This document shows positions 8,596 to 27,752 of a DNA stretch of 64,000 nucleotides, in pieces. Each line of letters opens with the position of its first letter. The first letter of the stretch is position 1. A program made the translations under genes and the position numbers. The notes under the pieces were generated by a model. The model was not told the origin of the DNA. It searched no databases and saw only the letters and a program-made list of their open reading frames with translations. Source of the stretch: a virus; the IMG/VR virus record IMGVR_UViG_3300017917_001616, positions 1 through 64,000 of that record; one strand, written 5' to 3'.

Positions 8596-9624
8596 ATGGC
8601 TACATTGGCAGAAATTCGTGCAAAACTAAAAGAACAAGAAGCTCGCTCACAAGGAGCGTCTACCGGTGGAACAAGCGATAACGCTATCTTCCCATTTTGG
8701 AATATCCCAGAAAATTCAACAAGTGTGATTCGTTTCCTACCAGACGGAGATGCATCTAACACATACTTCTGGCGTGAACGTCTGATGATTAAAATTGAAT
8801 TTAACGGTGTTAAAGGTCAGCCAGATTCACGTAAAGTTACAGTAAATGTTCCATGTAACGAAATGTGGGGTCCTGTGGGCAGTTGCCCAGTTCTTAGCGA
8901 AGTTCGTGGGTGGTTTAAAGATCCTAACCTAGAAGAACTTGGTCGCAAATACTGGAAGAAAAAGAGCTATGTGTTCCAAGGCTTTGTAACAGAAAACAGC
9001 CTACAAGAAGAATCTGTTCCAGAAAATCCAATTCGCAGATTCATCATTAATCCAAGCATCTTTAAGATTATCAAAGGTGCGCTAATGGATACAGACTTTG
9101 AAAACATTCCAACTGATTATGAAGCTGGAACAGACTTCCGTCTTACTAAGTCACAAAAAGGTCAATATGCTGACTATAGCACTAGCTCTTGGGCCCGTCG
9201 TGAACGTAGCCTGAATAGCGAAGAACGTGCAGCTATTGAAAAGTTTGGTCTATTTAATCTTAACGATTATCTGCCAAAGCAGCCTAGCGAAGATGAGCTA
9301 CGTGCAATTCAAGAAATGTTTGAAGCAAGTGTTGACGGTCAAATGTATGACCCTGATCGTTGGGGTAACTTCTATCGTCCTGCAGGCGTTCAAATTGATA
9401 CTAGCAATAGTGCAGCAAACAACAGTGCATCTAAGCCGGCACCAAAGAGTATAGCGCAACCTTCACGTCCTGCGCCTGAAGCTCATGTTGACGAGGATGA
9501 CGAAATCCCTTTTGAAGGATCGGCTCCAAAGCCCAGTGCGCCGATTGTTAAGCCGGCCACAAGTGACGCTAAACCTAGCGCACAAGACATTCTAGCAGCG
9601 ATTCGTGCTAGAGGTTCAAACTAA
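8596..9624 (+). CDS. Single-stranded DNA-binding protein (T4 gp32-like)
   Basis: IRFLPD, CPV, YWKKKSY, G.DF.L.K...YADYSTS motifs; directly upstream of UvsX. Confidence 0.88.
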   Translation: MATLAEIRAKLKEQEARSQGASTGGTSDNAIFPFWNIPENSTSVIRFLPDGDASNTYFWRERLMIKIEFNGVKGQPDSRKVTVNVPCNEMWGPVGSCPVLSEVRGWFKDPNLEELGRKYWKKKSYVFQGFVTENSLQEESVPENPIRRFIINPSIFKIIKGALMDTDFENIPTDYEAGTDFRLTKSQKGQYADYSTSSWARRERSLNSEERAAIEKFGLFNLNDYLPKQPSEDELRAIQEMFEASVDGQMYDPDRWGNFYRPAGVQIDTSNSAANNSASKPAPKSIAQPSRPAPEAHVDEDDEIPFEGSAPKPSAPIVKPATSDAKPSAQDILAAIRARGSN

Positions 9625-9638
9625 TAAAATTTGAAAAT

Positions 9639-9672
9639 ATATAGGGCGGCATCAGTCGCCCTATATGTCTTT
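9639..9672 (+). terminator. Hairpin / probable terminator after the SSB gene
   Basis: atatagggcg...cgccctatat inverted repeat. Confidence 0.55.
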
Positions 9673-9689
9673 CTAATAGGAGATATATT

Positions 9690-10808
9690 GTGGCTAAGCC
9701 TTTTGATATTAGTAAATTCCGTAAAAGTATTACTAAAAGTGTTCCTGGTATGAGTATCGGATTTCGTGATCCGGATACTTGGATTAGCACAGGTAACTAT
9801 ACATTAAACAAGCTAATCAGTGGTAGATTTGATGGCGGTGTTCCGCTTGGTAAGGTAACTGTATTTGCAGGCGAATCTGGTGCAGGTAAATCATTTATTT
9901 GTTCTGGTAACTTAGTTCGTGAAGCACAACGTCAAGGCATCTTTGTTGTGCTTGTTGATACTGAAAACGCACTCGACGAGCAATGGCTTCGTGCATTGGA
10001 TGTAGATACTGCTGAAGATAAACTACTTAAACTAAACGTTGCTATGATCGATGATGTTGCAAAAATCATCAACGATTTTATGACAGATTATAAAAAAGAA
10101 TATGCAGACAAGACAGCAAACGAACGTCCTAAAATTCTTTTCGTTTTAGATTCTTTAGGCATGATGCTTACGCCCACTGATGTTAATCAGTTTCAATCAG
10201 GTGACCTTAAAGGCGATATGGGTCGTAAACCCAAAGCACTAACTGCACTTGTTAGGAACTGTGTAAATATGTTCGGCGATTATAACGTCGGGCTTGTTGC
10301 TACGAACCATACTTATGCAAGCCAGGATATGTTTGATCCAGATGACAAGATCAGTGGCGGGTCTGGCTTTATCTATGCATCTTCTATTGTTGTAGCGATG
10401 AAAAAACTAAAACTTAAAGAAGATGAAGACGGTAACAAAATTAGCGAAGTTAGAGGTATCCGTGCTTCGTGTAAGATTATGAAAACACGTTATGCAAAAC
10501 CTTTCGAATCTGTCCAAGTTAAAATTCCTTATGAAACAGGTATGAGCCCATACAGTGGATTGGTCGACTTTTGTGAAGCTAAAGGCGTGTTAACTAAAAG
10601 CGGCAATAGACTACAATACATCGACAAAGAAACAGGAGAAGCAATTCTTAAGTTTCGTAAAGCATGGGAATCTAATGAAGGAAACTCGCTAGATTTGATC
10701 ATGAAGCAGTGGAACGACCACGATACAGATTCTGTTGTTGAAGAACTAAATATCCAGGATGAAAATCAAACCATCTTGGAGGAACGCACTAATTATGAAA
10801 CTGAATGA
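9690..10808 (+). CDS. uvsX: RecA/UvsX recombinase
   Basis: Walker A AGESGAGKS, VDTENA, LDSLG, TNHTY, SGGSG motifs. Confidence 0.93.
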   Translation: MAKPFDISKFRKSITKSVPGMSIGFRDPDTWISTGNYTLNKLISGRFDGGVPLGKVTVFAGESGAGKSFICSGNLVREAQRQGIFVVLVDTENALDEQWLRALDVDTAEDKLLKLNVAMIDDVAKIINDFMTDYKKEYADKTANERPKILFVLDSLGMMLTPTDVNQFQSGDLKGDMGRKPKALTALVRNCVNMFGDYNVGLVATNHTYASQDMFDPDDKISGGSGFIYASSIVVAMKKLKLKEDEDGNKISEVRGIRASCKIMKTRYAKPFESVQVKIPYETGMSPYSGLVDFCEAKGVLTKSGNRLQYIDKETGEAILKFRKAWESNEGNSLDLIMKQWNDHDTDSVVEELNIQDENQTILEERTNYETE

Positions 10809-14684: not shown

Positions 14685-14761
14685 CTGCCCGTAGCACAAC
14701 TGGATGGTGCAAGGCACTTCTAATGCCAAGGTTGGGGGTTCGAGTCCCTCCGGGCAGGCCA
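14685..14761 (+). tRNA. tRNA-Arg(TCT)
   Basis: Cloverleaf, loop CTTCTAA, TTCGA T-loop, CCA. Confidence 0.9.
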
Positions 14762-14814
14762 AAAAAACTTCTTATCTTGCGCTCTTATTATAAATATAAT
14801 AAAAGGAGTGCAAG

Positions 14815-15294
14815 ATGCCAGGACCAAAACCTACTGTATCTAAAGAAGATATTATTGATCTTATAAGCCAAGGATATCTCAAAAAAGAAATTGCTACTAA
14901 GTTAAATGTATCGTTATCGACTATTAAAAGACACAGTTCGGGACTAATTACAAAAAGAATAAGCTCTAAATATATTTGTCGAACATGTAGTATAGAAGGT
15001 AAAGAACATTTTTATAAAGATGCAAAGTATCAATGTAAATCTTGTTGGAATAAAAGATCATATACTGCTACTAAATCTAGAATTGCAGAATATATGGAAT
15101 CTAGAGGTGGTGCAAAATGTCAAATATGTGGTTATGATAAATGTGTAGCTGCTTTAGATTTTCATCATAGAGATCCTAATGAAAAGGATCCGTCATGGAA
15201 CAGAAGTTGGAGTATTAAAAGATTAAAAACTGAACTTGACAAATGTGATATATTATGTTCAAATTGTCATAGAGAATTACATTGGTTAAGTTAA
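14815..15294 (+). CDS. HNH homing endonuclease with N-terminal HTH, inserted in the tRNA block
   Basis: HTH (KEIATKLNVSLSTIKR), CxxC pairs, LDFHH...LCSNCHRELH. Confidence 0.85.
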   Translation: MPGPKPTVSKEDIIDLISQGYLKKEIATKLNVSLSTIKRHSSGLITKRISSKYICRTCSIEGKEHFYKDAKYQCKSCWNKRSYTATKSRIAEYMESRGGAKCQICGYDKCVAALDFHHRDPNEKDPSWNRSWSIKRLKTELDKCDILCSNCHRELHWLS

Positions 15295-15298
15295 AAAT

Positions 15299-15381
15299 GC
15301 GGGCATGGTGAAATGGTAGCCACGAGAGACTTAAAATCTCTTGCTCAATGCGTCCCGGTTCGAGTCCGGGTGCCCGCACCA
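15299..15381 (+). tRNA. tRNA-Leu(TAA), long variable region
   Basis: Cloverleaf, loop CTTAAAA, CCA. Confidence 0.9.
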
Positions 15382-15388
15382 GAAATAC

Positions 15389-15465
15389 GCCCTTGTAGCC
15401 CAACCGGTAGAGGCAGGAGACTTAAAATCTCTGTGTTGTTGGTTCGAATCCGACCAGGGGCACCA
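15389..15465 (+). tRNA. tRNA-Leu(TAA), short variable loop
   Basis: 77-nt cloverleaf, loop CTTAAAA, A73, CCA. Confidence 0.88.
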
Positions 15466-15471
15466 AAGTTT

Positions 15472-15548
15472 GGGGGATTAGCTCAATTGGTTAGAGCGTC
15501 CGACTCATAATCGGCAGGTTATCGGTTCAAGTCCGGTATCCCCTACCA
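15472..15548 (+). tRNA. tRNA-CAT (probably Ile2/lysidine, or Met)
   Basis: Loop CTCATAA; adjacent to tilS. Confidence 0.85.
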
Positions 15549-15552
15549 AAAC

Positions 15553-15629
15553 GGAAGGATAGTATAATTGGTGAATGCATACGTCTCATAAACGTAACTA
15601 TCTGGGTTCGAGTCCCAGTCCTTCCACCA
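15553..15629 (+). tRNA. tRNA-CAT (Met or Ile2)
   Basis: Cloverleaf, loop CTCATAA, CCA. Confidence 0.85.
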
Positions 15630-15644
15630 AAATAGAGTAATACG

Positions 15645-16250
15645 ATGATTAAAGTCCAAGGCAAACTTCCTAGAGACGTAGTAGTTGCTTGCAGCGGCGG
15701 CGTTGATAGTATGGCTATTGTTGATTTTCTAAAAAGAAATCATCGTATTACTCTACAGTTTGTGCATCATGGCACGGAAACTAGTGAACAAGCACACCAG
15801 TTTCTAGTGCAATATGCTGCAGATAATCAACTTAAACTATACACGTCACATATCAACACTGATCTTCCTAAAGGCGTAAGTCAAGAAGAACACTGGAGAA
15901 ACGAACGTTATAAAATTTTTAATGCTTGGCAGAAACCGGTTATTACTTGTCATCATTTAGATGATTGTGTAGAGACTTGGATTTGGTCAAGTATGCACGG
16001 CGAGGGTAAAGTTATTCCCTACCAAAATGAAAATGTAATTAGGCCTTTTAGACTAAACAAAAAACATGAGTTTATCAATTGGTGTAAACGAAAAAATGTA
16101 AGTTGGATTGAAGATAAATCAAATCTTGACACATCATATATTAGAAACTATATTCGTAACAATATTGTAGAACAACTGTTAGTTATTAATCCAGGCTTAC
16201 ATAAAGTAATCGCAAAGAAAATTGAACAAGAACACAAAGGACACATGTAA
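15645..16250 (+). CDS. tilS: tRNA(Ile)-lysidine synthetase, minimal catalytic domain
   Basis: PP-loop SGGVDS, R..RY, HHLDD.ET, IRP, WIEDKSN...RN.IR. Confidence 0.9.
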   Translation: MIKVQGKLPRDVVVACSGGVDSMAIVDFLKRNHRITLQFVHHGTETSEQAHQFLVQYAADNQLKLYTSHINTDLPKGVSQEEHWRNERYKIFNAWQKPVITCHHLDDCVETWIWSSMHGEGKVIPYQNENVIRPFRLNKKHEFINWCKRKNVSWIEDKSNLDTSYIRNYIRNNIVEQLLVINPGLHKVIAKKIEQEHKGHM

Positions 16251-16822
16251 TGGAAATCTCACTACGTAAAGCAAACGCACTACAACACGCCATCAACGAG
16301 ATGCTAGGCACACTAGACCTTAGCACTGAAGTCTCGATTAATGAATTCGAGAAGCCAAGCGAAAAGGTAACCGAAGCAACTGCTCGCTTTGCTACACACA
16401 TGGCTACTCGTAGCAAGCTAATTGCTGTGCTTTACGAGATTCGCAAGGCTGTTGCAGATGCAAATGCAGCGTCTGGGATCGACGGGCACCTTGCAGACGT
16501 AGCAATGCTAGACAAAGATATCCAGCTATATGGGCGTCTAAGCAAGCTAGAGCCTGCAGTGGCTAACGATGTGCTAGTCGGTAAGCTAGGCAAGATTAAG
16601 GGACGTGACAAAGCAGACGTTTACGGGCGTTTCGGCGACGACACTGTCACAACTAACATCTTCGATAAGGAAAAGATCGAAGAATTCAAGTCAGAGCTTG
16701 CTCGTCTGAAGCGAGCAAAGACTGCACTGCAAGATGAATTGCTAGAGCTTAACGTAAGCACTACAATCACACTGGACGACGAAACAGAGCGTTTCCTTGT
16801 TCGTGCAGGAATCGTAGAATAA
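16250..16822 (+). CDS. Hypothetical coiled-coil protein
   Basis: 190 aa ORF translationally coupled to tilS. Confidence 0.7.
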   Translation: MEISLRKANALQHAINEMLGTLDLSTEVSINEFEKPSEKVTEATARFATHMATRSKLIAVLYEIRKAVADANAASGIDGHLADVAMLDKDIQLYGRLSKLEPAVANDVLVGKLGKIKGRDKADVYGRFGDDTVTTNIFDKEKIEEFKSELARLKRAKTALQDELLELNVSTTITLDDETERFLVRAGIVE

Positions 16823-17112
16823 GTTTTGGTAGATGCAGGGCAAGGTAACTTGCCCGAAACTACCCGGAGTAGGAGAGAGAAACGAGAATAAAGGCGGGCA
16901 AGCGTTACTTGCATATTCAAACGATCGGTTTTTGATCTCCGCTGTGTGTTCCGATTTTATTATATTCGTCTTAATTGACACTGCATTTTGATAATCGGAA
17001 ATATAGGCATTGTAGATTGCGTGTTGTTTGTTGCAAAAGTAGGTCTGTATACCACGCTACATGCACTTTGCTGGATCTTTATTACTCACTCTTTCCTCTC
17101 TGTTTTAGTTTA

Positions 17113-17189
17113 GCCCTTGTAGGCCAATTGGTAGAGTCGGCGGATTCAAAATCCGCATAGTGTCGGTTCGAGTCCGACCAAGGGCACCA
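17113..17189 (+). tRNA. tRNA-Leu(CAA), short variable loop
   Basis: 77-nt cloverleaf, loop TTCAAAA, CCA. Confidence 0.88.
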
Positions 17190-17239
17190 AATATTTTGTA
17201 TTAAGGAAGTATAATATGCGTAGAGATGGGAGAAATGCA

Positions 17240-17599
17240 ATGCGTAGTGTTAAGATGAATCGTGACGAACTTTTAAAGATTGTCAAAGAAAATAAGATTA
17301 AGCACGTTGCCGAATACGAAGAAGCAGTGAATGATTATAAAGCACTTGCTGTTAAGATTACAAAAGAAAATGTGAAGCTAGCAAACACCGGCGACTTGGA
17401 TAAAATTAAAGATATCAAAAGCATTCCGTCTGCACCACGTAGCTACGAGAACGATTACAATCGTGCAGCACGTATGCTTGAACTAAGCGTAGAAGACGTT
17501 ATCGAACTTGAAGATGATGTATTCAACCAACTAGTGCTTGACGAATGGTCTTGGAAACAATCATTTACTGTAAGCAACAGTATGTATAAATCAATGTAA
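17240..17599 (+). CDS. Hypothetical protein
   Basis: GGAG SD, 119 aa ORF. Confidence 0.7.
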   Translation: MRSVKMNRDELLKIVKENKIKHVAEYEEAVNDYKALAVKITKENVKLANTGDLDKIKDIKSIPSAPRSYENDYNRAARMLELSVEDVIELEDDVFNQLVLDEWSWKQSFTVSNSMYKSM

Positions 17600-17852
17600 T
17601 ACTCTGTAAAGAGTAACCAAGTTTAGTCTGCGTCTTGTAGTTTATAACTGAGATTCACTACTTAAGGCGTAACAATGGACCGATAAGAACATTCGAAGTA
17701 AGAAGTCCTAACACTGCTGGTAAAACCGTTAAATGCTTTCTCAGGCTGTGCAGTTGCCGGACGCAGACTAAATAATTTAAGATGATAAATAAAAGTGTAA
17801 GATAATTTTATCTCAGATGATAAATAAACTTATATAAGGAATACAAAGTTCA

Positions 17853-17942
17853 ATGATTACATGCGGAACCACAGCACAGAATACATGGTCACTAGGGGGC
17901 AATCCTAGTGTCGATTCCGTGCGGGCGGGCCGAGGTAGTTAA
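17853..17942 (+). CDS. Putative attenuator leader peptide 1 (MITCGTTAQNTWSLGGNPSVDSVRAGRGS, 29 aa)
   Basis: AAGGA SD at 17836; terminator 25 nt after the stop; codons match the downstream tRNAs. Confidence 0.7.
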   Translation: MITCGTTAQNTWSLGGNPSVDSVRAGRGS

Positions 17943-17967
17943 GAACAAACCAAAAAGTTCGAACACC

Positions 17968-17999
17968 AAGGCCCCAAGCGAAAGCAGAGGGGCTTTTTT
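17968..17999 (+). terminator. Attenuator terminator 1
   Basis: aaggcccc-aa-gc-gaaa-gc-aga-ggggcttt plus T run; 5' arm can instead pair with leader 17896-17914. Confidence 0.8.
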
Positions 18000-18037
18000 A
18001 ATGGCTCAAAAAAAGATAAAAAAAGACAAAATAACAG

Positions 18038-18196
18038 TTGACAGGCAAGAACTCATACACTATATGTAACTAGTAAGGAACGCAGACGCAGCAACGCAGA
18101 GCTTCCAAACAAAAAAGAAAAAAGTTGTTGACAAGGCAAAAACAAGACGCTAAGTTAACAAGGTAAGCAAGAAGTTGTTTACACGCTCTTTGACAA
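18038..18196 (+). promoter_or_regulatory. Tandem sigma70 promoters with A-tract UP elements and a boxA-like element (18184-18196)
   Basis: TTGACA-17-TATATG (18038), TTGACA-17-TAAGTT (18128), CGCTCTTTGACAA. Confidence 0.7.
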
Positions 18197-18297
18197 TTTA
18201 GACGTATTACGGTAAGCTATAGTAGCTTATCACATTCCTTAGCGAAAGCGATGATAGGGATTGTAAGTAGACAATGTATGCACCAACATACATTAAC

Positions 18298-18431
18298 TAA
18301 CTCTACTTACACGTATGTTAGAAATGGGGGTAGCACGGTTCGACTCCGTGCGTGGTTGGGTTGACCTATGCAAAAAGCCGGCGGGCGCTCGCTGTTTCGA
18401 AGACAGACTAACATACTTGTAAGTAGAGTTA
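18298..18431 (+). ncRNA. Stem-enclosed RNA cassette containing a T-arm-like hairpin
   Basis: 24-nt terminal inverted repeat with 1 mismatch; internal gcacgg-ttcgact-ccgtgc. Confidence 0.6.
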
Positions 18432-18541
18432 ATAACTAGCGCAGGGGGATGACCCCGTAAGACGCAAGAGACTCGGCACTGCTAGGCTTATAGCAGCTAA
18501 GTCGCCCTTGTTGCCTGGGGTAGAGCCCATAACTGTTATGT

Positions 18542-18617
18542 TCCGTCTTAGCTCAGTTGGTAGAGCAGGTGACTGTTAATCACCGGGTCGCTGGTTCGAG
18601 CCCAGCAGACGGAGCCA
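18542..18617 (+). tRNA. tRNA-Asn(GTT)
   Basis: Canonical cloverleaf, CCA. Confidence 0.95.
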
Positions 18618-18625
18618 AAAATTAT

Positions 18626-18704
18626 CTGGGTGTAGCTCAGCTTGTGTTAGAGTGCTCGCCTTGGAAGCGAGAGGTCGAAGGTTCAAATCCTTTCACCCAG
18701 ACCA
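18626..18704 (+). tRNA. tRNA-Pro(TGG)
   Basis: Loop CTTGGAA, CCA. Confidence 0.92.
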
Positions 18705-18792
18705 GATACATCACGGTGCTGCATAAGCGAGGCTTAATCATAAATGCAGTTAAATCACTAACGGGCAGCGGTTAGCAGAGCCAAAAACATAC

Positions 18793-18880
18793 GGAGCGGG
18801 GGCAGGATGGTAATGCAGCAGATTGCTAATCTGTAGAGGGGGCAACTCCTCACTGGGTTCGACTCCCAGTCGCTCCGCCA
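18793..18880 (+). tRNA. tRNA-Ser(GCT)
   Basis: Loop TTGCTAA, long V arm, G73, CCA. Confidence 0.92.
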
Positions 18881-18952
18881 ATGGCACACTAGCATCAGGC
18901 TAGTCCAGACCGTAAGGTTAACGGTGACAAGCAGGGAGAGTCCTGCACACAC

Positions 18953-19062
18953 ATTCTACTTTAAACTATGCACAAGGCGTAGGCCACGCCGATGTTATGG
19001 CAACAGGTTGGCATTTGCTGACTAGGTGGTTCGATTCCACAGTGTATAGTTTAAAGTAGAAT
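18953..19062 (+). ncRNA. Stem-enclosed tRNA-like cassette
   Basis: 21-bp terminal stem with one G-U; internal gtgg-ttcgatt-ccac. Confidence 0.6.
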
Positions 19063-19064
19063 AT

Positions 19065-19141
19065 TGCGGGGTAGAGAAGTGGTCATCTCGCTTGGCTCAT
19101 AACCAAGAGATCGCTGGTTCGAATCCAGCCCAACGCAACCA
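19065..19141 (+). tRNA. tRNA-Met(CAT), initiator-like
   Basis: TGCGGGG start, fMet-like D arm, loop CTCATAA; imperfect acceptor stem. Confidence 0.8.
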
Positions 19142-19244
19142 AATTTCCAGTCTTAGTTACTAGGATCTCTCAGTTAAAAGCTGTCCTAGTGTAAAGCAAT
19201 GTCCTAAATGGCTTGCTTCTAAGGTAGCTGGAAAGCCAACAGTT

Positions 19245-19335
19245 GGACACTTGGCAGAGATGGATTATTGCACCGGTCTTGAAAACCGACGACGCTGAAA
19301 GGCGTCCCAGGGTTCGAATCCCTGAGTGTCCGCCA
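19245..19335 (+). tRNA. tRNA-Ser(TGA)
   Basis: Loop CTTGAAA, long V arm, G73, CCA. Confidence 0.92.
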
Positions 19336-19341
19336 TAAATT

Positions 19342-19415
19342 GGCCCTATGGTATATGGGTATTACACTAGGCTGTCTACCTGGTGAACGGGGTTCGAGTC
19401 CCCGTAGGGTCGCCA
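19342..19415 (+). tRNA. tRNA-Asp(GTC)
   Basis: Loop CTGTCTA, G73, CCA. Confidence 0.9.
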
Positions 19416-19616
19416 AGATACTTGAGTGTTAGTAAGTGAAAGGTGCAACAGTTTAGCGGCTGTTGTAACAAGGAGATATGCAATCCTCCGAGTAACTGTA
19501 ATAACGGACCCCAAGGACGCAAGTCCATAACTGCACGGCCGAAAATTTGCAGATAATGCTGTTGATGTTGTGGCAACAGGCTCAAGTAATAAAATAAAAA
19601 AAAGATAAAAAAAGTG

Positions 19617-19689
19617 TTGACAATGACAACAACACATACTATATTAAGAACATAAGCAGCAAACGTGTTGTTTATGCGCTCTTTGAAAA
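19617..19689 (+). promoter_or_regulatory. Sigma70 promoter, hairpin and boxA-like element
   Basis: TTGACA-17-TATATT, hairpin 19652-19675, CGCTCTTTGAAAA at 19677. Confidence 0.7.
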
Positions 19690-19699
19690 TTTGGTAAAC

Positions 19700-19884
19700 A
19701 CTGTGTTTAAAACTAACACGATACTAGATACTGTGTATAATGCACCGTTGGTTAGTGACCAGGTATTAGTAGGCTGAACAGCGTTGGGACGCAACTGTCG
19801 CAAAGACAGGAGGACTGGTTCGATTCCAGCAGTAGCAATTTACTCTCGAGGTGGGTTGCTTATTGTGTTAGTTTTAAACACAGT
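19700..19884 (+). ncRNA. Stem-enclosed RNA cassette with T-arm
   Basis: 24-bp terminal stem with one G-U; internal ctgg-ttcgatt-ccag. Confidence 0.6.
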
Positions 19885-19889
19885 ATAAC

Positions 19890-20746
19890 ATGGGCGGTAT
19901 AGCGTCCGACTTAAGGGTAAGTGCAGTAATGCACCCAAAGCAAGGTTTCCTATAAACTTGCGCTGTAGCAATACAGTCCATCTATGCAAGCCTGAACTAG
20001 AGTTGACTCGGTTATCCGAAAGCAACTCCCGTCCGTAGAAAGGCGGTAGGCAGTAAGTTAGGAATGGTGTCCGAAAGGATAGTCGCAGAGCCAGTCGGTG
20101 AGCGATAAGAGGGTTGGCGCCCAAACACCGTTCAGCCAAACTAACGAATGCTGAAAGTTAACAGGTAGCTACAGAGTCTGAGCCCGCAAGCAAAGGCATG
20201 GTAGCATCTTGAGAGTGGAAGGGTTAGGCCCCGGATACTTGAAAAGACGTTGAGTAGTCCGCAAGACGAAAGACAGTTGGTGTGTTGTATTCTGTATCTA
20301 ACAAGATATGGAGCAACTGGGGCAGCACATCGAAGTAGGTTCGCAATATTGCATAACGGTAATGCAATCGTATTATCAAACGACAGACTGTGGGTTCGAT
20401 TCCCACTGTTGCACACAAAAGCGAAAGACTGTCCCGGTATACTACGAAAGGTGGTTAATGCCACACTCGAAAGAGAATGTGGTCTACAGATGCTCGCAAG
20501 GCGGACGTAGTTGTTCGGAAAGATAGCGTAACTTCTTAGCGGAAGTGAACTGCTCGCAAGGCAGGCGAAGGATAGAAGGACGAGTAGTAGTATGCGACGA
20601 GAGAAACGCCACTCTCCAAAAAAGGCACCACTGGAAGATACAGGATGACCGTAAAAGGCTCCTGTGGATAACGAGAGAACGTGGCTCGCAAGGCTAACGG
20701 TAATGCTCAAAGGCTTCCATCCTATGCTGTAATCTCAAGCTAGGCA
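19890..20746 (+). ncRNA. Large ornate ncRNA, GOLLD-like, with a nested tRNA-like element (20342-20413)
   Basis: About 860 nt, GC-richer, no credible ORF, many GNRA-capped hairpins (gcaa, gaaa), located among tRNAs; boundaries approximate. Confidence 0.6.
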
Positions 20747-20851
20747 AAACATTACGTTTTGATGATACACATATATACTAACAGAGGCTTAGTCCGGAGA
20801 GCGTTATGCCAAGTTTATGTGTATCTTCTAAGCGTAAAATAAATACTTTAC

Positions 20852-20927
20852 GGGCTCTTAGCTCAGTTGGGAGAGCGGTAGCTTTGCAAGCTTCAGGTCA
20901 GCGGTTCGATCCCGCTAGGGTCCACCA
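20852..20927 (+). tRNA. tRNA-Ala(TGC)
   Basis: G3-U70, loop TTTGCAA, CCA. Confidence 0.93.
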
Positions 20928-20934
20928 AAATAAT

Positions 20935-21009
20935 GCGGGTGTAGCTCAGGGGTAGAGCGGCTGCTTGCCAAGCACCAGGTCACGGGTTCGAATCCCGTTA
21001 CCCGCTCCA
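20935..21009 (+). tRNA. tRNA-Gly(GCC)
   Basis: Loop TTGCCAA, U73, CCA. Confidence 0.93.
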
Positions 21010-21063
21010 AGTTAGGTTTTCGGTTAAGCCATTTAAAACCGTAAATGTATGTGAGAGGACAAT

Positions 21064-21318
21064 ATGAAAACTTTAGAAGAAAAAGAACAGTTTTACACTA
21101 AATGTGGAGAACTATTGGGAATAGAACACGTTTACACTACACCGGTTCCTAGACGTAACAGATGGAATACAAGACGATTAGGTAACGGTCGGTATCCCGG
21201 GTTTGGGTTGATACACTGTTATGGTAGTAGTGTGCGAGTTATGAGTAAACACGGAACACGTATGTTTAGCTCATACGAAGCGGTATATGAATATTTGTTA
21301 AAAGTTTTGCCCTTATAG
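21064..21318 (+). CDS. Hypothetical protein; stop codon lies inside tRNA-Thr
   Basis: GAGGA SD, 84 aa. Confidence 0.65.
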   Translation: MKTLEEKEQFYTKCGELLGIEHVYTTPVPRRNRWNTRRLGNGRYPGFGLIHCYGSSVRVMSKHGTRMFSSYEAVYEYLLKVLPL

Positions 21319-21384
21319 CTCAGCTGGTAGAGCATCTGATTTGTAATCAGAGGGTCGGGAGTTCAAGTCTCTCTGGGGGCACCA
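21309..21384 (+). tRNA. tRNA-Thr(TGT)
   Basis: Loop TTTGTAA, CCA. Confidence 0.93.
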
Positions 21385-21390
21385 AAATTT

Positions 21391-21466
21391 GGCTCGGTAG
21401 CAAAAGCGTCGAATGCGTGATCTTGCAAAGATCGAGGTGGTGGTTAAAGTCCATCCTGAGCCTCCA
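21391..21466 (+). tRNA. tRNA-Cys(GCA), atypical D and T loops
   Basis: Loop TTGCAAA, U73, CCA; T-loop TTAAAGT. Confidence 0.75.
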
Positions 21467-21476
21467 AAAACTAAAT

Positions 21477-21560
21477 GGTCGGTGGCCCGGATGGTAAGGG
21501 GATGGACTGCAACTCCATAGCACTGCAAAGTAATGTGTTCGATTCACATACCGACCTCCA
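21477..21560 (+). tRNA. tRNA-Cys(GCA) with long variable arm
   Basis: Loop CTGCAAC, extra arm act-gcaa-agt, U73, CCA. Confidence 0.82.
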
Positions 21561-21579
21561 AGTTTTTATAAATATATGT

Positions 21580-21969
21580 ATGAAGATATTTGAGATCACA
21601 GCAAAACTTGTAAACAAGTATTATCCAGAGCCGGATGAGACTGAAGTTGGGTCTGATGTAAAGAATGTAAGAAATGAAGTAAATCGAGTTGTTACATTGC
21701 CAATGAATCAAATTAAGTCTAGATTCGAAGGCGACGATAAAGCAGATCCTGCGTGGACTACAGCTAGAGCAAATATCGAAAACATTAAAAAACAAATTAA
21801 AAAAGATGTCAAACAGCTACCTCCAATAGTTGTGAGAAGGCTTCCAAGAGAAAATACGTATCAAGTAATAGATGGTCACCATCGTTACTTTGCATTTCGT
21901 GAAATGAATATTAAACTTATACCAGCTATAATACTAAATGCTGGACAAGTTACTGGTGACAAATATTAA
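21580..21969 (+). CDS. ParB/Srx N-terminal (ParBc-like) domain protein
   Basis: PPIVVR...YQVIDGHHR motif; TAAATA upstream; MKIFEI start. Confidence 0.8.
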   Translation: MKIFEITAKLVNKYYPEPDETEVGSDVKNVRNEVNRVVTLPMNQIKSRFEGDDKADPAWTTARANIENIKKQIKKDVKQLPPIVVRRLPRENTYQVIDGHHRYFAFREMNIKLIPAIILNAGQVTGDKY

Positions 21970-21978
21970 AAATACAAT

Positions 21979-22055
21979 GCGGATGTAGGCCAATTGGTAG
22001 AGTCGCTGCGCTTAGAACGCAGATGTTGGGGGTTCGAGTCCCTCCATCCGCACCA
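21979..22055 (+). tRNA. tRNA-Leu(TAG), short variable loop
   Basis: Loop CTTAGAA, A73, CCA. Confidence 0.88.
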
Positions 22056-22063
22056 AAGGTTGA

Positions 22064-22138
22064 TGGGAAGTAGTTCAGTGGTAGAATAACTGACTTTGAA
22101 TCAGCAGGTCGGAGGTTCGAGCCCTCCCTTCCCAACCA
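22064..22138 (+). tRNA. tRNA-Gln(TTG)
   Basis: U1-A72, loop CTTTGAA, CCA. Confidence 0.92.
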
Positions 22139-22146
22139 AAAAATAT

Positions 22147-22223
22147 CCGAGTGTAGCTCAGTTTGGTAGAGCGCCTGGTTTGGGACCAGGATGTCGTGGG
22201 TTCAAATCCTGCTACTCGGACCA
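22147..22223 (+). tRNA. tRNA-Pro(TGG)
   Basis: Loop TTTGGGA, CCA. Confidence 0.92.
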
Positions 22224-22519
22224 ATAAATTGTAGTGTTGAGCAACGACAACAAGACTGCTACAGCGGTCTACTACATTCGGTAAGCGGGACCGTTCGTTG
22301 TAACAGCCAAACAAGACGACCGAAGTAAACTAGTTTAGACCTAGCGAAAAGGGCCAGCTGCCTGTGACGTGCATTCCGGGGTTAGAGAAGCTGGGGATAT
22401 GGTTTCGGTGTTTACCTGAACAAAATATACTGTGGAATGTCGTTTTCTGTCTAAGAATAATCTGTTACAACGAAATAGTAACTCCGGATGATAGTAACCG
22501 GTTTATATAGAGATTCAAT

Positions 22520-22594
22520 GCGGGTGTAACTCAGAGGTAGAGTGTCAGCCTTCCAAGCTGTTCGTCGAGGGTTCGATTCCCTTCGCCCGCTCCA
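22520..22594 (+). tRNA. tRNA-Gly(TCC)
   Basis: Loop CTTCCAA, U73, CCA. Confidence 0.93.
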
Positions 22595-22598
22595 AATT

Positions 22599-22673
22599 GC
22601 CGGTGTAGCTCAGTGGTAGAGCGACGGTCTCCAAAACCGTGCGTAGTGGGTTCGATTCCTACCTCCGGCGCCA
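22599..22673 (+). tRNA. tRNA-Trp(CCA)
   Basis: Loop CTCCAAA, G73, CCA. Confidence 0.93.
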
Positions 22674-22924
22674 AACTTGGGAGTTAGCCGCCCAAAACCA
22701 GTGTCAACGACTTCTCATACAACTTGACACTCTAATAAACTTTTGTATCTGAGACGAGGCCATCTGCGTAGTGATGGCAGGCGTTGGTTGTGTTGGTCTT
22801 GAAAGAAACGCAACGGGTATTGATGCATGCCTAAGGAAAGGGTTGGCCCCCAGCATCGACTATTTTATGACCTAGCGTCACTGTATTGGTCTAGTCACCC
22901 TTATACACCTAGGTCTTCTTATTT

Positions 22925-22999
22925 GCGCCCTTGGACAAGATGGATTGTCAGAGGATTCTAACCCTTAGTAGACGGGATCGTTACCCGTAGGGCGCACCA
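22925..22999 (+). tRNA. Atypical tRNA; anticodon CTA (amber suppressor) in canonical register, TCT (Arg) in shifted register
   Basis: Perfect acceptor, D and T stems; weak anticodon stem around TTCTAAC; CCA. Confidence 0.7.
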
Positions 23000-23128
23000 A
23001 ATATTTCTGGGTTATCCGAGACAATCTCCGCCACGGGCGGCTTGGCTGTTTATAAGTCTAGCAAAGCTAGTTAGATACTATAGGACATAGACGGTAACTT
23101 GGGGCGCTATAAATAAAAGGAGCAATAC

Positions 23129-23305
23129 ATGAGAATGACCAAAGAAGAAATTGAAACCGCAGTTCGAGTTTGGCCAGCTAATGTAAAGGCTCCGATAACT
23201 CGAGACGAACAAATACAACTAATTATTACAGCACGTGAACGTCACGCTGCTAACAGAGAAAAAATTCGACAACTTTTAAAGGAGAATAATAATGTCGTAG
23301 ATTGA
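23129..23305 (+). CDS. Small hypothetical protein (58 aa)
   Basis: TATAAATA and AAGGAG SD upstream. Confidence 0.55.
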   Translation: MRMTKEEIETAVRVWPANVKAPITRDEQIQLIITARERHAANREKIRQLLKENNNVVD

Positions 23306-23885
23306 ATATGCTTGTAAGGAACTAGTTTTCCATTTCAACAAAAAACACTTAGAAGATGATACTATCCCGATGTGGGTTATCAAGTTTCGTGGTGAAACAT
23401 ATTATGTTAACCATGTAGATTGCAGCGTTCCGTGGTCAACCAAAGAAACGCCAGATAACAATCACACCAAAGGCAGTATTAAAGTTAAAAACTGCTTAGT
23501 AGTAATTGATGATTCAAACACAGCAATTATTACACCATTGACTGAAGCAGATAAGAAAAAACTCGAAAGTAAGAAAAAATTTACACGTATTATTACTAGC
23601 TATGGTGCAAAGTTGAAGGCAGCAATCAACGACTTAGGACTTGAAACTGGTTATATTAAAAAAGCAGGCGGTGGCTGTAGCACGTTATGGTTCATCACCG
23701 AGTTGTATAATTACGATGAGTTTTTTCAACTTAAGTTTGCTATGACAGGCACAGACTTGCGAGTGTTAAAAGAAAACGAAGACTACTTCAAAGCGTATGG
23801 TTCATCAACAGATGACCAAGAATATATCGACGACGAAGAAGATTTGTATGATGACGAGGATTACGAATCATTATACGAAACTTAG
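23292..23885 (+). CDS. Hypothetical protein; probable true start 23292 with in-frame TAG at codon 3 (ORF track starts at 23370)
   Basis: AAGGAG SD before ATG TCG TAG ATT GAA...; frame continues open into 23370-23885. Confidence 0.6.
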
Positions 23886-23967
23886 ACTACAAACGTAGCA
23901 GTAACTAGGTTACTGCCCGTATAAAACCCCCGCTGTGATCCCGAGATAAGAACACAGAGGACCAGCA

Positions 23968-23993
23968 CCCCACGCTTTCGAGCGTGGGTTTTT
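23968..23993 (+). terminator. Rho-independent terminator
   Basis: cccacgct-ttcg-agcgtggg followed by TTTTT. Confidence 0.75.
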
Positions 23994-24068
23994 GCGGGAT
24001 TAGCTCAGTGGTAGAGCCGCTCGTTTACACCGAGAAGGTCGGGAGTTCGAACCTCTCATCCCGCACCA
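23994..24068 (+). tRNA. tRNA-Val(TAC)
   Basis: Loop TTTACAC, CCA. Confidence 0.92.
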
Positions 24069-24090
24069 ATTATTTTTATGGACGTTATAT

Positions 24091-24717
24091 ATGGTTAAAA
24101 TGACTTGTTACTCGGATGTTCCTGGATGGGGAGATTTTCCGATAGTATACCGTGATTTAGTTGCGTCACTGCCTGCTAACGCTAGTATACTTGAATTAGG
24201 TGTTGGGTTTGGACGTGGAACATGGACAATGCTCGACGCAATGACGGATACCATGTCACTTTATATAATTGATAGTTTTAATGCAGTAGACACAGTAGAT
24301 TTGTGGGAAAATTATTTCGAAACAGGTAGTCCGGTAACACTAAGTCGGGAAAATATATTAGAGTATGGAAATATGACTAAAATATATAACCACTACGAAA
24401 TCTTTTTACATAATATATGTCAACACACACGTTACTCTCAAATACAAGCAATACATGCTATATCAAGCGACGAGTATATTGCTTCGAATTTTAAGAATGA
24501 TTTTGATCTTGTATTCCTAGACGGCGAGCATTCATATGAAGCTGTAAAGCAAGAACTTGAATACTTTAAAAATTCTGGCATAATTTCTGGACATGACTAC
24601 AATATTGAAACTTGGCCGGGTGTAATACAAGCGGTAACCGAATTTCTTGATAGTAACCCCGATCGGTATTTAAAAGTATACGAAGAAAATGAAGTATTTG
24701 TGATTTGCCGTCGTTAA
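24091..24717 (+). CDS. Class I SAM-dependent methyltransferase (Methyltransf_24-like)
   Basis: ILELGVGFGR, FLDGEHSYE, ISGHDY...WPGV motifs. Confidence 0.85.
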   Translation: MVKMTCYSDVPGWGDFPIVYRDLVASLPANASILELGVGFGRGTWTMLDAMTDTMSLYIIDSFNAVDTVDLWENYFETGSPVTLSRENILEYGNMTKIYNHYEIFLHNICQHTRYSQIQAIHAISSDEYIASNFKNDFDLVFLDGEHSYEAVKQELEYFKNSGIISGHDYNIETWPGVIQAVTEFLDSNPDRYLKVYEENEVFVICRR

Positions 24718-24755
24718 ACTGAATAATAAATAGTTTTAATTACGGAGATTACAAT

Positions 24756-25619
24756 ATGGTCTATCATTTAGAAAATTCTATCTGGAATAAAAAAAATCAT
24801 CCAGAAGGACTTTCGCTGCCTATGATCGAAGATTTACCTAGGGTCAACTTATTATTAAAGCCTGCAATAGAAAGAAAGGCAAAAGACAAGATTGTTATTG
24901 ACCTTGGGTGCGGCAGCGGATTATTGGGACTATATGCTTTTGACTACGGTGCAAAATTTGTTTATTTTGTTGAACAAGACCCTTTCATGATTGATACATT
25001 ACGTAACAGTTTGCCTAAAATACTAGATCCTAACAAATTTAAAATTATTCATAAGTATGCACAAGACTTAACTTATGATGATTTTGATTGTGGCGAACCA
25101 GAGTTATGTGTTAGTGAGTTACAAGGGCCGCAACTGTATGACGAAGGTTGCTATCAATGCACAATTCCTATACGAAGCATGTATCAAAACTTAGTATTCA
25201 TACCAGAAGTGTATCGACTCGATATCATTGAATCAGATGTAGACTATAGCAAATGGCCGTGGCCTCAAAGCGAAACACGTTTGTTAGAGCATTACAAATA
25301 TATGTATTCTAAAATAGGTTGGACAAATGGGTTTATCGGATTAGACCGTCCTATCGAATTAGTAAATCCGAAAAAAATAGGTGAGCTTGTATACGACACA
25401 AGATCTGGTATTTTTAAAAACACATTTTCTACTGTTATTACTGCGCCAGAAGGCAAAATGATTAACATGTTTGGTTTTTGCCAATCTGACGAATTAGAAA
25501 ATGTTACAACTAAATTTGGTTGGTATGTTTATCCCAGACAGGAACAGATGTTATTGACAGTTCATAATCCCAATACAGCTATTGATTCTAGGATTATGTT
25601 TTCTTTAGCATTACAATGA
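24756..25619 (+). CDS. SAM-dependent methyltransferase, PRMT-like
   Basis: M..D..R, VIDLGCGSGLL, GAK.VY.VE, SE..G..L.DEG double-E-like loop. Confidence 0.7.
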   Translation: MVYHLENSIWNKKNHPEGLSLPMIEDLPRVNLLLKPAIERKAKDKIVIDLGCGSGLLGLYAFDYGAKFVYFVEQDPFMIDTLRNSLPKILDPNKFKIIHKYAQDLTYDDFDCGEPELCVSELQGPQLYDEGCYQCTIPIRSMYQNLVFIPEVYRLDIIESDVDYSKWPWPQSETRLLEHYKYMYSKIGWTNGFIGLDRPIELVNPKKIGELVYDTRSGIFKNTFSTVITAPEGKMINMFGFCQSDELENVTTKFGWYVYPRQEQMLLTVHNPNTAIDSRIMFSLALQ

Positions 25620-25625
25620 AATTAT

Positions 25626-25699
25626 GCCGGTATAGCTGAGTGGTTTAGCAGCTGATTAGTAATCAGCCGACGGGAGTTCGATTCTCTCTACCGGCACCA
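25626..25699 (+). tRNA. tRNA-Thr(AGT)
   Basis: Perfect stem gctga/tcagc around loop TTAGTAA, CCA. Confidence 0.88.
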
Positions 25700-25717
25700 A
25701 TACTAAATACATGATAC

Positions 25718-26530
25718 ATGTTTGTAAAGGAATCGGCAATGGGTGTAAAATTTGTAATAGGGTTAACAGATGTAACAATACATGAATCGTTTTATCCGAC
25801 TCCGGACGTTGTTAACACATATCAAGGTCCCGCAGATCAATTTGAAAAAGTGGCATATTATGTTTTACAAAATAATAACGCTTCAATTGAGAAAGCATCG
25901 ATAGAATGGACATTGGATACAACTCTTCCTGCTGTCAATACTGTGTTAGATATCATTGATACTGTAAAAATATCGCCCTTAAATGTTACACACATATATG
26001 CTCACAAGTATACACAAGAAGTATTGCCTAGTTTGTTTGACACAGACTTTATCATTGAAATGAAAAATTTGGTCCCAGTGGATGGGTTAGTGTTCCCTGA
26101 GTATACTAGTGTTGATTATGATAATATTTCAACAAACAAACCTCCGATGTATTGCAGTTTAGAATTAGACGGCACATGTGCTACATTAACAAGTCAGGTT
26201 GAAGATGCACAAACACTTGCATACGCTATGTTTAACAATGATTTATCATATTTGGTTAACGGGCCTATGATAAAATATGTTTATCCTACGTTTAGGGTAA
26301 ATTTTAGACATAATGGAGAAACAGTGTTAAACAAATCTATGTCAGTGCAACAAACACAATGGATGCGTGATAACAAAGATTTTCTTGAATCTAAAGGATA
26401 TTTCGAGTCTGATAATAAAAACAAATTAGGATCTCTTGTGATAGGTCAACTTGTAGGTAGCTATCAAGATGCATTTGCAAAAGCACAACAGTATACCAGA
26501 ATTTGCAGAGTTGAAATAATAAGGGATTAA
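25718..26530 (+). CDS. Hypothetical protein (paralog of the next ORF)
   Basis: KFVIGLTDV...EKASIEW...RICR. Confidence 0.7.
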   Translation: MFVKESAMGVKFVIGLTDVTIHESFYPTPDVVNTYQGPADQFEKVAYYVLQNNNASIEKASIEWTLDTTLPAVNTVLDIIDTVKISPLNVTHIYAHKYTQEVLPSLFDTDFIIEMKNLVPVDGLVFPEYTSVDYDNISTNKPPMYCSLELDGTCATLTSQVEDAQTLAYAMFNNDLSYLVNGPMIKYVYPTFRVNFRHNGETVLNKSMSVQQTQWMRDNKDFLESKGYFESDNKNKLGSLVIGQLVGSYQDAFAKAQQYTRICRVEIIRD

Positions 26531-26536
26531 TATTAC

Positions 26537-27298: not shown

Positions 27299-27338
27299 TT
27301 TTTTTTGTGTAATACGTCTAAATTGTCAAAGAAAACGG

Positions 27339-27367
27339 TTGACGAAGATAAATAAAAGCACTATATT
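27339..27367 (+). promoter_or_regulatory. Sigma70 promoter with a late TAAATA box embedded in its spacer
   Basis: TTGACG-aagataaataaaagcac-TATATT. Confidence 0.75.
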
Positions 27368-27395
27368 ACTAACATAAGCAAAAGGAAATCAAGAG

Positions 27396-27485
27396 ATGAC
27401 TCACAATACTAAACACATGATTAGCATTAAGCGTTTTGAACGCCACGAGTATCTCTTTGGATTCTCGGAGGGTTATAGCGGATAA
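27396..27485 (+). CDS. Putative attenuator leader peptide 2 (MTHNTKHMISIKRFERHEYLFGFSEGYSG, 29 aa)
   Basis: AAGGA SD, own promoter, terminator 26 nt after the stop, two segments complementary to the terminator. Confidence 0.78.
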   Translation: MTHNTKHMISIKRFERHEYLFGFSEGYSG

Positions 27486-27511
27486 GTGTATATACACATA
27501 AACGCAATGAC

Positions 27512-27543
27512 ACCCTCCAGTAGAGATACTAGGAGGGTTTTTT
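27512..27543 (+). terminator. Attenuator terminator 2
   Basis: accctcc-agta-gaga-tact-a-ggagggt plus T run. Confidence 0.88.
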
Positions 27544-27679
27544 ATTAGGCTAAAGTGGAAATGCGGAACGAGACTGCGAGTAACCACTATAAACAAACTC
27601 AAATGGGCGTGTTAGAAGATGAAACGACCGGTGGTAACGGCGGAGTAAAAATCTAGCAGCAAGCTAATAATTTTGTTTT

Positions 27680-27750: not shown

Positions 27751-27752
27751 AC

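Follow-up and report, generated by a model that had tools for sequence, protein, structure and literature searches.

A probable leader-peptide attenuator ahead of a large tRNA gene block in an uncultured phage

The region 17781–17999 of the window (the whole stretch that we analysed, 64,000 nucleotides (nt) of IMG/VR virus record IMGVR_UViG_3300017917_001616) is on balance best read as a ribosome-mediated, leader-peptide transcription attenuator that heads a large block of transfer RNA (tRNA) genes, here called block 1, and is one of two such modules. The record itself has 74,982 bases, of which the window is the first 64 kilobases (kb), and comes from an uncultured virus known only from metagenomes. 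Since CheckV puts its completeness at 19%, the whole genome probably has about 400 kb. The proteins that the record encodes include a tail sheath, a large terminase, a gp32-like single-stranded DNA-binding protein, a UvsX-like recombinase, helicases and a ribonucleotide reductase, the genes of the window lie on the plus strand throughout, and 41 tRNA genes are found within 14685–34165. The putative attenuator is placed between a small first tRNA group, which ends with a tRNA-Leu at 17189, and the much larger block 1, which begins with a tRNA-Asn at 18542 (Table 1).

In the mechanism that we propose, a late-type promoter with an ATAAATA core would start a short leader transcript, and a ribosome would translate its 29-codon open reading frame (ORF), sORF1, in which codons 2–21 are the proposed sensing part and the last eight codons form a G-rich tail. 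A ribosome that lags or stalls anywhere from codon 2 to about codon 20 would leave this tail free, and the emerging terminator arm GGCCC would be captured by GGGCC of the tail in a hairpin that has the stop codon inside it; the captured arm would block the terminator, and the polymerase would continue into the tRNA genes. A fast ribosome that has come to the end of the leader would cover or melt the G-rich tail, the terminator would form, and transcription would stop at 17999. Shortage of any sampled tRNA would delay the ribosome and lead to more read-through; as each kind of tRNA encoded in the block has one or more codons in the leader body, the supply of the whole set is what the module would gauge. 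The coupling of ribosome to polymerase, and both the direction and the size of the regulation, are what we infer from this layout.

The layout itself recurs in a family of relatives. Searches of GenBank phages by DNA or by peptide gave none, while IMG/VR supplied a near-identical copy (L006) and a diverged one (L005). A three-way alignment of these with the window has flanks that are more than 90% identical around an ORF body of about 50% identity, the flanks taking in two structured RNAs (at 17625–17770 and near 18205–18310), the promoter motifs and start context on one side of the ORF, and the terminator and downstream promoters on the other. A pattern search with promoter motif and start context led to L013, L014, L015 and L016, and one with the promoter pattern to L017; a profile search of 1.84 billion proteins returned 15 cluster representatives, two of which led to L018/L019 and to L020–L022. 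A promoter motif, a Shine–Dalgarno sequence, an ORF of 27–31 codons and a terminator thus lie ahead of a tRNA block in nine lineages (L005, L006, L013, L014, L015, L016, L017, L018/L019 and L020–L022), and in all nine the module stands just upstream of the block and in the same orientation, with tRNA-Asn as the first gene in most; beyond these lineages the leader ORF occurs in the 15 cluster representatives. One metagenome scan and one genome scan yielded truncated copies or chance matches only, and two further candidates, L008 and L012, were discarded as chance matches inside coding genes.

An initial annotation of the region had pointed to TAAATA at 17821, a Shine–Dalgarno sequence and a 29-codon ORF, all of which are present, TAAATA falling within the second of two copies of a 13-nt motif. 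The Shine–Dalgarno sequence AAGGA and its 12-nt spacing are retained in relatives. Six relatives and L020 have exactly the same start context, AAGTTCAATGA, from which L017 and L018 have diverged. Homologous ORFs keep frame, start and stop, their indels are in frame, and about 20 diverged members retain the reading frame. Between the window and L013, codons 7–19 carry three synonymous and no non-synonymous changes, and the flanking codons 11 non-synonymous and one synonymous. All 19 members compared share the core G-x-x-N-P-x-x-D, whose G, N, P and D never vary, and the strings W-T-P-G and D-L-C-x-E-G are present in many members of the family. The kept frame, the in-frame indels, the synonymous-only changes in the core and the invariant residues together make it very likely, as far as sequence comparison can tell, that sORF1 is translated and that part of its peptide or codon sequence is under selection.

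The same comparisons bear on the idea that the region makes a non-coding small RNA or a structural 3′ element, for instance a stable late small RNA, in which the open frame would be incidental. The region is indeed more stable than its shuffles when folded (−50.5 kcal/mol, z −3.1), each relative has a long hairpin in the ORF region, and most relatives conserve the nucleotides of the start context. However, a frame that survives many indels in about 20 diverged members and a core with synonymous changes only are not what such an RNA would lead one to expect, a consensus fold of seven relatives retains only the central hairpin, one 3-base-pair (bp) helix and the terminator, and an Rfam scan of 14000–36000 with E up to 1 found no family that overlaps 17600–18540; we regard this explanation as quite improbable. 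The long hairpin spanning the whole ORF was likewise set aside as a conserved RNA, being lost from the consensus fold. Other candidates that we rejected are a degenerate tRNA (the D20 repeat is a tRNA-3′-like stretch at 17911–17931, but there is no cloverleaf and the relatives lack it), a transfer-messenger RNA (none was found by ARAGORN or Rfam) and a SecM-like or TnaC-like arrest motif, a likeness that is not conserved across the leader family.

The conserved residues also resemble the pattern of a ribosomally made, modified peptide precursor of the lasso kind, which has Thr at −2, Gly, Ala, Ser or Cys at 1 and Asp or Glu at 7–9 and is accompanied by cyclase and peptidase genes: T stands at −2 in about 10 of the 19 members, and G at 1 and D at 7 or 8 in all. 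The 75-kb record and five related records of 42–123 kb, all of them partial, yielded no Asn-synthase-like cyclase (PF00733), nor did those five yield a transglutaminase-like peptidase (PF13471); moreover the leader part would have just 11–14 residues, and the idea leaves both the terminator geometry and the tRNA match unexplained. With the residue pattern present and the enzymes not found in these partial records, we dropped this candidate, which we consider extremely improbable.

An intrinsic terminator lies shortly 3′ of the leader ORF. The initial annotation had placed it here, and it is found as a stem at 17968–17993 followed by six T residues (−14.0 kcal/mol); every relative has it, and at one pair C-G is replaced by U-A, a compensatory change. 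The central hairpin cactagg/cctagtg, also noted before, is present and conserved in seven relatives, and the stretches tgcggaa (17862–17868) and ttccgtg (17915–17921) that flank it are indeed complementary, with two G-U pairs. Our guess is that the central hairpin might pause RNA polymerase so that the ribosome can catch up. The initial annotation had further drawn an antiterminator from 17896–17914 and 17959–17975, with the central hairpin as anti-antiterminator. That pairing can be drawn as a duplex of −15 kcal/mol and the hairpin is real and conserved, but the pairing occurs in no minimum-energy fold, with the ribosome masked or not, and the homologous stretch in L005, L014–L018 and L020 has no G-run for the arm. 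Being absent from the folds and having no counterpart in L005, the pairing is no more than chance, and an attenuator exactly as first drawn is very improbable.

The best duplex between the ORF and the terminator arm is instead formed by the GGGCC region, both in the window (−17.6 kcal/mol) and in L005 (−16.2 kcal/mol). GGGCC at 17927–17931 is identical in L005 despite the roughly 50% identity of the remaining ORF, and the hairpin that it forms compares with the terminator at −19.4 against −14.0 kcal/mol in the window and at −18.4 against −15.2 kcal/mol in L005. With a 28-nt ribosome footprint masked at one codon after another, we calculated how probable the terminator stem is in an equilibrium model of the full-length transcript. 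In the window this probability is 0.99 with no ribosome, 0.03–0.46 with the ribosome at codons 1–14 or 18–20, and 0.99–1.0 with the ribosome at codons 21–30, and the competitor helix in the window folds is always GGGCC 17927–17931 with GGCCC 17970–17974. When the ORF body is replaced by natural phage coding sequence the switch appears in 0/60 replacements each time, and when it is replaced by shuffles that preserve composition, in 0–10% of cases, the figure for the window being 4–10%. The long hairpin 17854–17941 of the window could hold the antiterminator strand, and the terminator probability is 0.99 without a ribosome; in L005 it is weak without a ribosome, at 0.36–0.39, and the long hairpin is not part of the consensus fold.

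In an attenuator the upstream helix is the first to form, which makes equilibrium folding an unreliable guide, and we therefore also folded transcripts cut just before the 3′ arm of the terminator. In every module of two scored sets (9/9 and 13/13) these nascent transcripts have the 5′ arm paired to the last eight codons at probabilities of 0.49–1.0, the 13-module set leaving out L014 sORF1, which was scored in the nine-module set, and L018 sORF2. The antiterminator of the window has a probability of 0.85 in the nascent transcript and is lost with the ribosome masked over the last codons; with a ribosome masked at the stop, the pairing of the arm comes down to 0.18–0.53 in all modules except L005. 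Shuffling the order of the codons gives a mean pairing of 0.04–0.29, and the observed value is reached in 0–15% of shuffles. Across modules the predicted antiterminator hairpins come to between −14 and −29 kcal/mol, and the terminators to between −14 and −20 kcal/mol. These folds point to an antiterminator that uses the 5′ arm of the terminator and so would exclude it.

The placing of the stop codon is regular too. The gap from stop to terminator is 20–31 nt in 14 modules of both leader families, compared with 0–63 nt for other terminator-like hairpins of the record, and a G-run lies 8–15 nt before the stop across modules; the stop thus appears, in the folding model, to be placed so that a terminating ribosome would cover the antiterminator strand and leave the terminator free. 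The tail changes together with the arm, the pairs being GGGCC with GGCCC, GGAGGG with CCCUCC, AGGGC or GGGGUUU with AAGCCCUU, and GCAGG with CCUGC. In addition, two compensated frameshifts, between L014 and L015 and between L018 and L020, leave the G-run unchanged in its nucleotides and the stop in its place and alter the peptide, which argues for selection on the RNA and on the end point of translation and not on the peptide of the tail.

If the leader senses the supply of tRNAs, its codons should correspond to those that the operon provides. The initial annotation held that a list of leader codons could all be read by tRNAs of the downstream block; this stands for most of them, as 21 of the 29 sORF1 codons are read, under strict wobble, by the tRNAs of 18542–22999, and falls for two on its list, CCT and GTG, which are among the unread codons (ATT, ACC, CCT, GTC, TCC, GTG, CGG and CGA). 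Random 29-codon windows from phage genes have 13.6 ± 2.9 codons read (P = 0.007). For amino acids the correspondence is nearly complete and concerns both leaders. In the window (G000), leader 1 contains 14/14 of the block 1 amino acids and leader 2 contains 10/10 of those of block 2; the corresponding values are 13/13 and 10/11 in L013, 10/10 and 9/9 in both the L014 and the L015 lineage, 12/12 and 7/8 in the L017 lineage, 10/10 and 7/7 in L018, and 11/11 and 7/7 in L019. When the leaders are swapped within a phage, 7–12 amino acids are missing, and full coverage is reached by 29-residue windows drawn at random from phage proteins with P between 0.001 and 0.27 per pair.

The match also tracks differences between lineages. 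In the L014 and L015 lineages tRNA-Trp, tRNA-Gln and tRNA-Cys belong to block 2; there W, Q and C all occur in leader 2, and W is missing from leader 1. In the window block 2 is without these three tRNAs and leader 2 without W, Q and C. A tRNA-Leu(GAG) occurs in block 2 of the window alone, and so does Leu (CTC) in leader 2. Permuting the lineage labels gives a mean of 10.5 missing amino acids, as against 2 observed (P = 0.011). At the level of anticodons, 131 of 146 are sampled by the leaders, compared with 121.2 ± 3.3 in synonymously randomised leaders (P = 0.003), and the codons served by the leader's own block amount to 166/230 in the body versus 36/96 in the tail; for leader 1 of the window, 15 of the 17 block 1 anticodons are sampled, and 17 of 20 body codons are served.

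The second module has the same layout and was found, in a terminator scan, in all six lineages where both blocks could be examined. Its ORF, sORF2, belongs with its homologues to a second peptide family. Between the sORF2 terminator and the tRNA-Ile that opens block 2 there is no match to a promoter on the plus strand (27541–27882), and in the L014 and L015 lineages the distance from the T-run of the second module to the start of tRNA-Trp is about 24 nt. With no intervening promoter and so short a spacing, transcription of block 2 must pass the terminator, an arrangement that is classic for attenuators. Family 2 has a tail and a terminator like those of the L017 copy of sORF1, and by this resemblance the 3′ halves of the two leader families probably share ancestry. 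On the 3′ side of the second leader's terminator lies a conserved RNA (27553–27612; agtggaaatgcggaacgagactgcgagtaacc...), which is near-identical in the L013, L017 and L018 lineages.

Given two leaders that each match their own block, we can tentatively go one step further and view the modules as tRNA inventory sensors, in which the leader of each main block lists that block's own tRNAs, and shortage of one would raise that block alone. This may hold, with somewhat less confidence than we place in attenuation as such. Sources of shortage could be depletion of host tRNAs, a mismatch in codon usage or a host defence that cleaves tRNAs, and for block 1 the feedback would act only on transcripts from the late promoter, so as to form a separate, translation-gated late supply of tRNA.

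The promoter of the leader is likely the second copy of the 13-nt motif. The first copy, GATGATAAATAAA, overlaps a weak sigma70-like match in a promoter scan (TTAAGA, 18 nt, GATAAT; 17777–17806). Both copies are kept in L005, L006 and L013, the 13-mer has one base changed in L017 and L018, and in L020 the core GATAAATA alone is kept. ATAAATA occurs 29 times on the plus strand of the 75-kb record versus once on the minus strand, often 13–30 nt upstream of start codons, those of structural genes included, and is likely the late-promoter core of this phage group, of the T4 type. The late promoter of T4, TATAAATA, is a −10 element without a −35 that is used by a phage late sigma factor. The strand bias of the ATAAATA core, its distance from start codons and a large myovirus setting with UvsX-like and gp32-like genes are points of likeness to T4, and unlike the T4 late octamer both motif copies have G as first base; a T4-type promoter is suggested here by the sequence, and it is from the motif that activity and timing of the promoter are deduced. 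Family 1 leaders have the ATAAATA motif without a good −35 element, and family 2 leaders have it inside or beside a sigma70-like promoter.

Several observations weigh against attenuation as the function of the module, and one of them concerns the promoters that follow it. Sigma70-like promoters with A-rich upstream tracts lie 40–190 nt past the terminator (18038, 18127 and 18190), and a TTGACA promoter is found 3′ of the terminator in eight of nine lineages, the exception being L015. Block 1 is therefore independent of read-through in the window copy, where these promoters intervene, and the module can gate solely those transcripts that come from the upstream late-type promoter. The terminator could thus be a plain insulator of block 1 from upstream transcription, standing behind a small gene, and this is a fair alternative. 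In the equilibrium model the switch is found in only three or four of seven relatives: L013, L014 and L016 lack it, with a terminator probability of about 1.0 throughout, and L006 has a weak one. Shuffling the nucleotides of the tail only still leaves pairing (means 0.15–0.79), and therefore much of the signal is G-richness; what is conserved, according to the folding, is a G-rich tail correctly placed opposite a C-rich arm.

The leader, too, has features that fit poorly. It has no tandem run of one regulatory codon and spreads 15 different amino acids over 29 codons, Lys and Glu not being among them. Its peptide core seems, from the substitutions, to be under purifying selection, unlike classic leader peptides, and it could be a working micropeptide; the conserved core could also reflect single-copy sensing codons that cannot be lost. 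In the cluster representatives P0003, P0004 and P0005 a Gln codon replaces the stop, and the frame continues through the terminator hairpin for 25–50 extra residues. As for the match with the tRNAs, permutation with four clades gives P = 0.08–0.17, and pooled P values are inflated because the lineages share ancestry. Four Ser codons and one Asn codon stand in the L015 leader, yet the 18.5 kb retrieved around it and downstream yielded neither a tRNA-Ser nor a tRNA-Asn; in L014, Tyr is still in the leader and a tRNA-Tyr is missing. Only the relation from block to leader holds: the amino acid of each block tRNA is in the leader, for all of them or all but one.

Much of this would suit an ordinary small late gene, which would make a working peptide of 27–31 residues acting, for instance, on the translation or tRNA machinery, and whose terminator would end the gene and shield the tRNA promoters; pairing of tail and arm would then be a by-product of a Gly-rich C-terminus beside a C-rich arm. 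The invariant G, N, P and D in 19 members, the synonymous-only changes in codons 7–19 between the window and L013, the sigma70-like promoters directly 3′ of the terminator, the three relatives without an equilibrium switch and the pairing that survives tail shuffles all speak for it. Yet two compensated frameshifts preserve the nucleotides of the G-run and not the peptide of the tail, and the tail covaries with four classes of terminator. A small gene leaves the fixed gap from stop to terminator unexplained; in the sister family the module lies between promoter and tRNAs, and no second promoter intervenes; and complete coverage of amino acids that tracks lineages would be unexpected for an unrelated peptide. 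No GenBank phage matches the peptide, and no modifying enzymes were found in the partial records searched. We therefore think this explanation unlikely, and prefer attenuation: of the initial annotation's reading, the translated leader, the competing hairpins and the late-type promoter draw support from nine lineages and from the match between leader and tRNAs, and the antiterminator is the part that has to be replaced, since the pairing then noted is not the conserved one.

Table 1. Positions in the window of the putative attenuator, its sister module and the tRNA genes that they precede
Feature	Position	Strand	Description
First 13-nt motif copy	17781..17793	+	T4-late-like ATAAATA core 17785-17791
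Second 13-nt motif copy	17816..17828	+	Contains TAAATA 17821-17826
Shine–Dalgarno AAGGA	17836..17840	+	12 nt before ATG; then AAGTTCA context
Leader ORF (sORF1)	17853..17942	+	ATG 17853, TAA 17940, 29 codons
Central hairpin	17890..17910	+	cactagg/cctagtg, 17890-17896/17904-17910; 7-bp stem, 7-nt loop, mid-ORF
Predicted antiterminator 5′ strand GGGCC	17927..17931	+	Codons 25-27, 9-13 nt before stop
Predicted antiterminator hairpin	17927..17975	+	GGGCC with GGCCC 17970-17974; encloses stop codon and inner hairpin
Intrinsic terminator	17968..17999	+	5′ arm 17968-17975, 3′ arm 17989-17996, T-run 17994-17999
A-rich tract and first sigma70-like promoter past terminator	18008..18066	+	TTGACA 18038-18043, 17 nt, TATATG 18061-18066; families D16, D17
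tRNA block 1	18542..22999	+	Asn, Pro, Ser, Met, Ser, Asp, Ala, Gly, Thr, Cys, Cys, Leu, Gln, Pro, Gly, Trp, Arg
tRNA-Val, tRNA-Thr	23994, 25626	+	Between block 1 and second leader
Sister module	27339..27543	+	sigma70-like promoter with embedded ATAAATA, sORF2 27396-27485, terminator 27512-27538 and T-run
tRNA block 2	27883 onward	+	First gene tRNA-Ile 27883

A number of other RNAs and genes surround the module. The structured RNA at 17625–17770 is conserved, has a 15-bp closing stem (tagtctgcgtc...gacgcagacta) and folds at −44.5 kcal/mol (z −2.9); it has no Rfam match, lies directly 3′ of tRNA-Leu(CAA) in L005 and L006, and contains a 42-nt piece with 90% identity to the Pseudomonas phages Milchi and Astolliot. 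In the window an ORF of 127 residues (17216–17599; phrog_34511, of unknown function) stands between tRNA-Leu and this RNA, and since it is missing at that spot in L006 and is elsewhere in L005, it looks inserted or mobile. On the other side of the module, 3′ of the promoters, the region 18176–18320 holds a boxA-like CGCTCTTTGACAA and a highly conserved long-stem RNA (gtaagtagac...tctacttac), with identical runs of 27–39 nt in L005, L006, L013 and L017. It is followed at 18331–18352 by a perfect hairpin like a T-arm (gcacgg ttcgact ccgtgc) with no cloverleaf, which L013 also has (1124–1145).

Inside the tRNA block a GOLLD RNA (Rfam RF02032, 195 bits) is found at 20277–20741, whose tRNA-like domain (20342–20414) is called by ARAGORN with an odd anticodon loop; L016 carries a GOLLD RNA as well (9388–9849). 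Upstream, a PP-loop protein of 201 residues (PF01171, TilS-like; 15645–16250) adjoins two tRNAs with CAT anticodons. Among the relatives, L005 has at 6885–7305 a tRNA-like 5′ half and then a promoter-like motif; the ORF that comes next has Cys and His residues in an HNH-type pattern, and this may be a tRNA gene interrupted by an intron or a homing endonuclease. A tRNA with anticodon CTA, which reads UAG and is labelled Pyl by ARAGORN, lies at 13702–13776 of L025 (1399–1473 of L017), and is possibly an amber suppressor in the L017 lineage.

The logic of the proposed element is known from enterobacterial leader attenuators, namely those of thr (Thr/Ile), ilvGMEDA (Leu/Val/Ile), trp, his, leu and phe. 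It shares with them a short leader ORF ahead of an intrinsic terminator, an alternative hairpin that uses the 5′ arm of the terminator, termination when the ribosome is at the end of the leader and read-through when it is held back, and a leader spelled in amino acids relevant to the regulated product, the multivalent thr and ilvGMEDA being the closest. It differs in that the phage element would control tRNA genes and not biosynthetic enzymes, has no tandem codon run but one or few codons for each of 10–14 amino acids, has a conserved peptide core and, in the window copy, separate promoters past the terminator, and is encoded by a phage with what is probably a late-type promoter. In pheST of Escherichia coli, with its pheM leader, Phe codons sense one amino acid and control a synthetase; this too is leader-peptide attenuation of a gene of the translation apparatus, but the phage leader would sample many tRNAs and its products would be the tRNAs themselves. 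T-box riboswitches bind one uncharged tRNA directly by means of a specifier loop and a T-box sequence, with no translation needed. There, as here, a choice between terminator and antiterminator would be set by the state of tRNA, and T-boxes control genes of the aminoacylation system; the proposed sensor of the phage is instead a translating ribosome, and no T-box or other Rfam match was found.

As in T4, the tRNA genes of the window are clustered with stable RNAs of unknown role, and we know of no description of a leader ORF or an attenuator at the tRNA cluster of T4. A long tRNA array (the trn operon) in Anabaena sp. PCC 7120 is induced under translational stress (PMC8421152; PMC10272220), and the phage blocks resemble it as accessory tRNA arrays that would be expressed more when translation is impaired. 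The Anabaena array is controlled by the repressor TrcR at its promoter, and neither paper mentions attenuation, a leader peptide or a terminator (PMC8421152; PMC10272220). Full-text literature searches gave no account of attenuators ahead of phage tRNA genes. We thus found no published description of attenuation of tRNA genes in the style of the trp operon: the logic is known, and the proposed element departs from it in its target and in its type of leader.

The proposal bears on why large phages carry dozens of tRNA genes and on how these are controlled. If the reading given here is true, the speed of decoding would feed back directly on the phage's supply of tRNA, by a logic like that of trp and thr which samples a whole set of tRNAs, and there would be a testable link between phage tRNAs, the codon usage of late genes and host defences that destroy tRNA. 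Other phages could be searched for such modules by a simple sequence signature, in which a fixed gap separates a short ORF whose tail is G-rich from a C-rich terminator arm, and each module would be a compact natural sensor of translation capacity.

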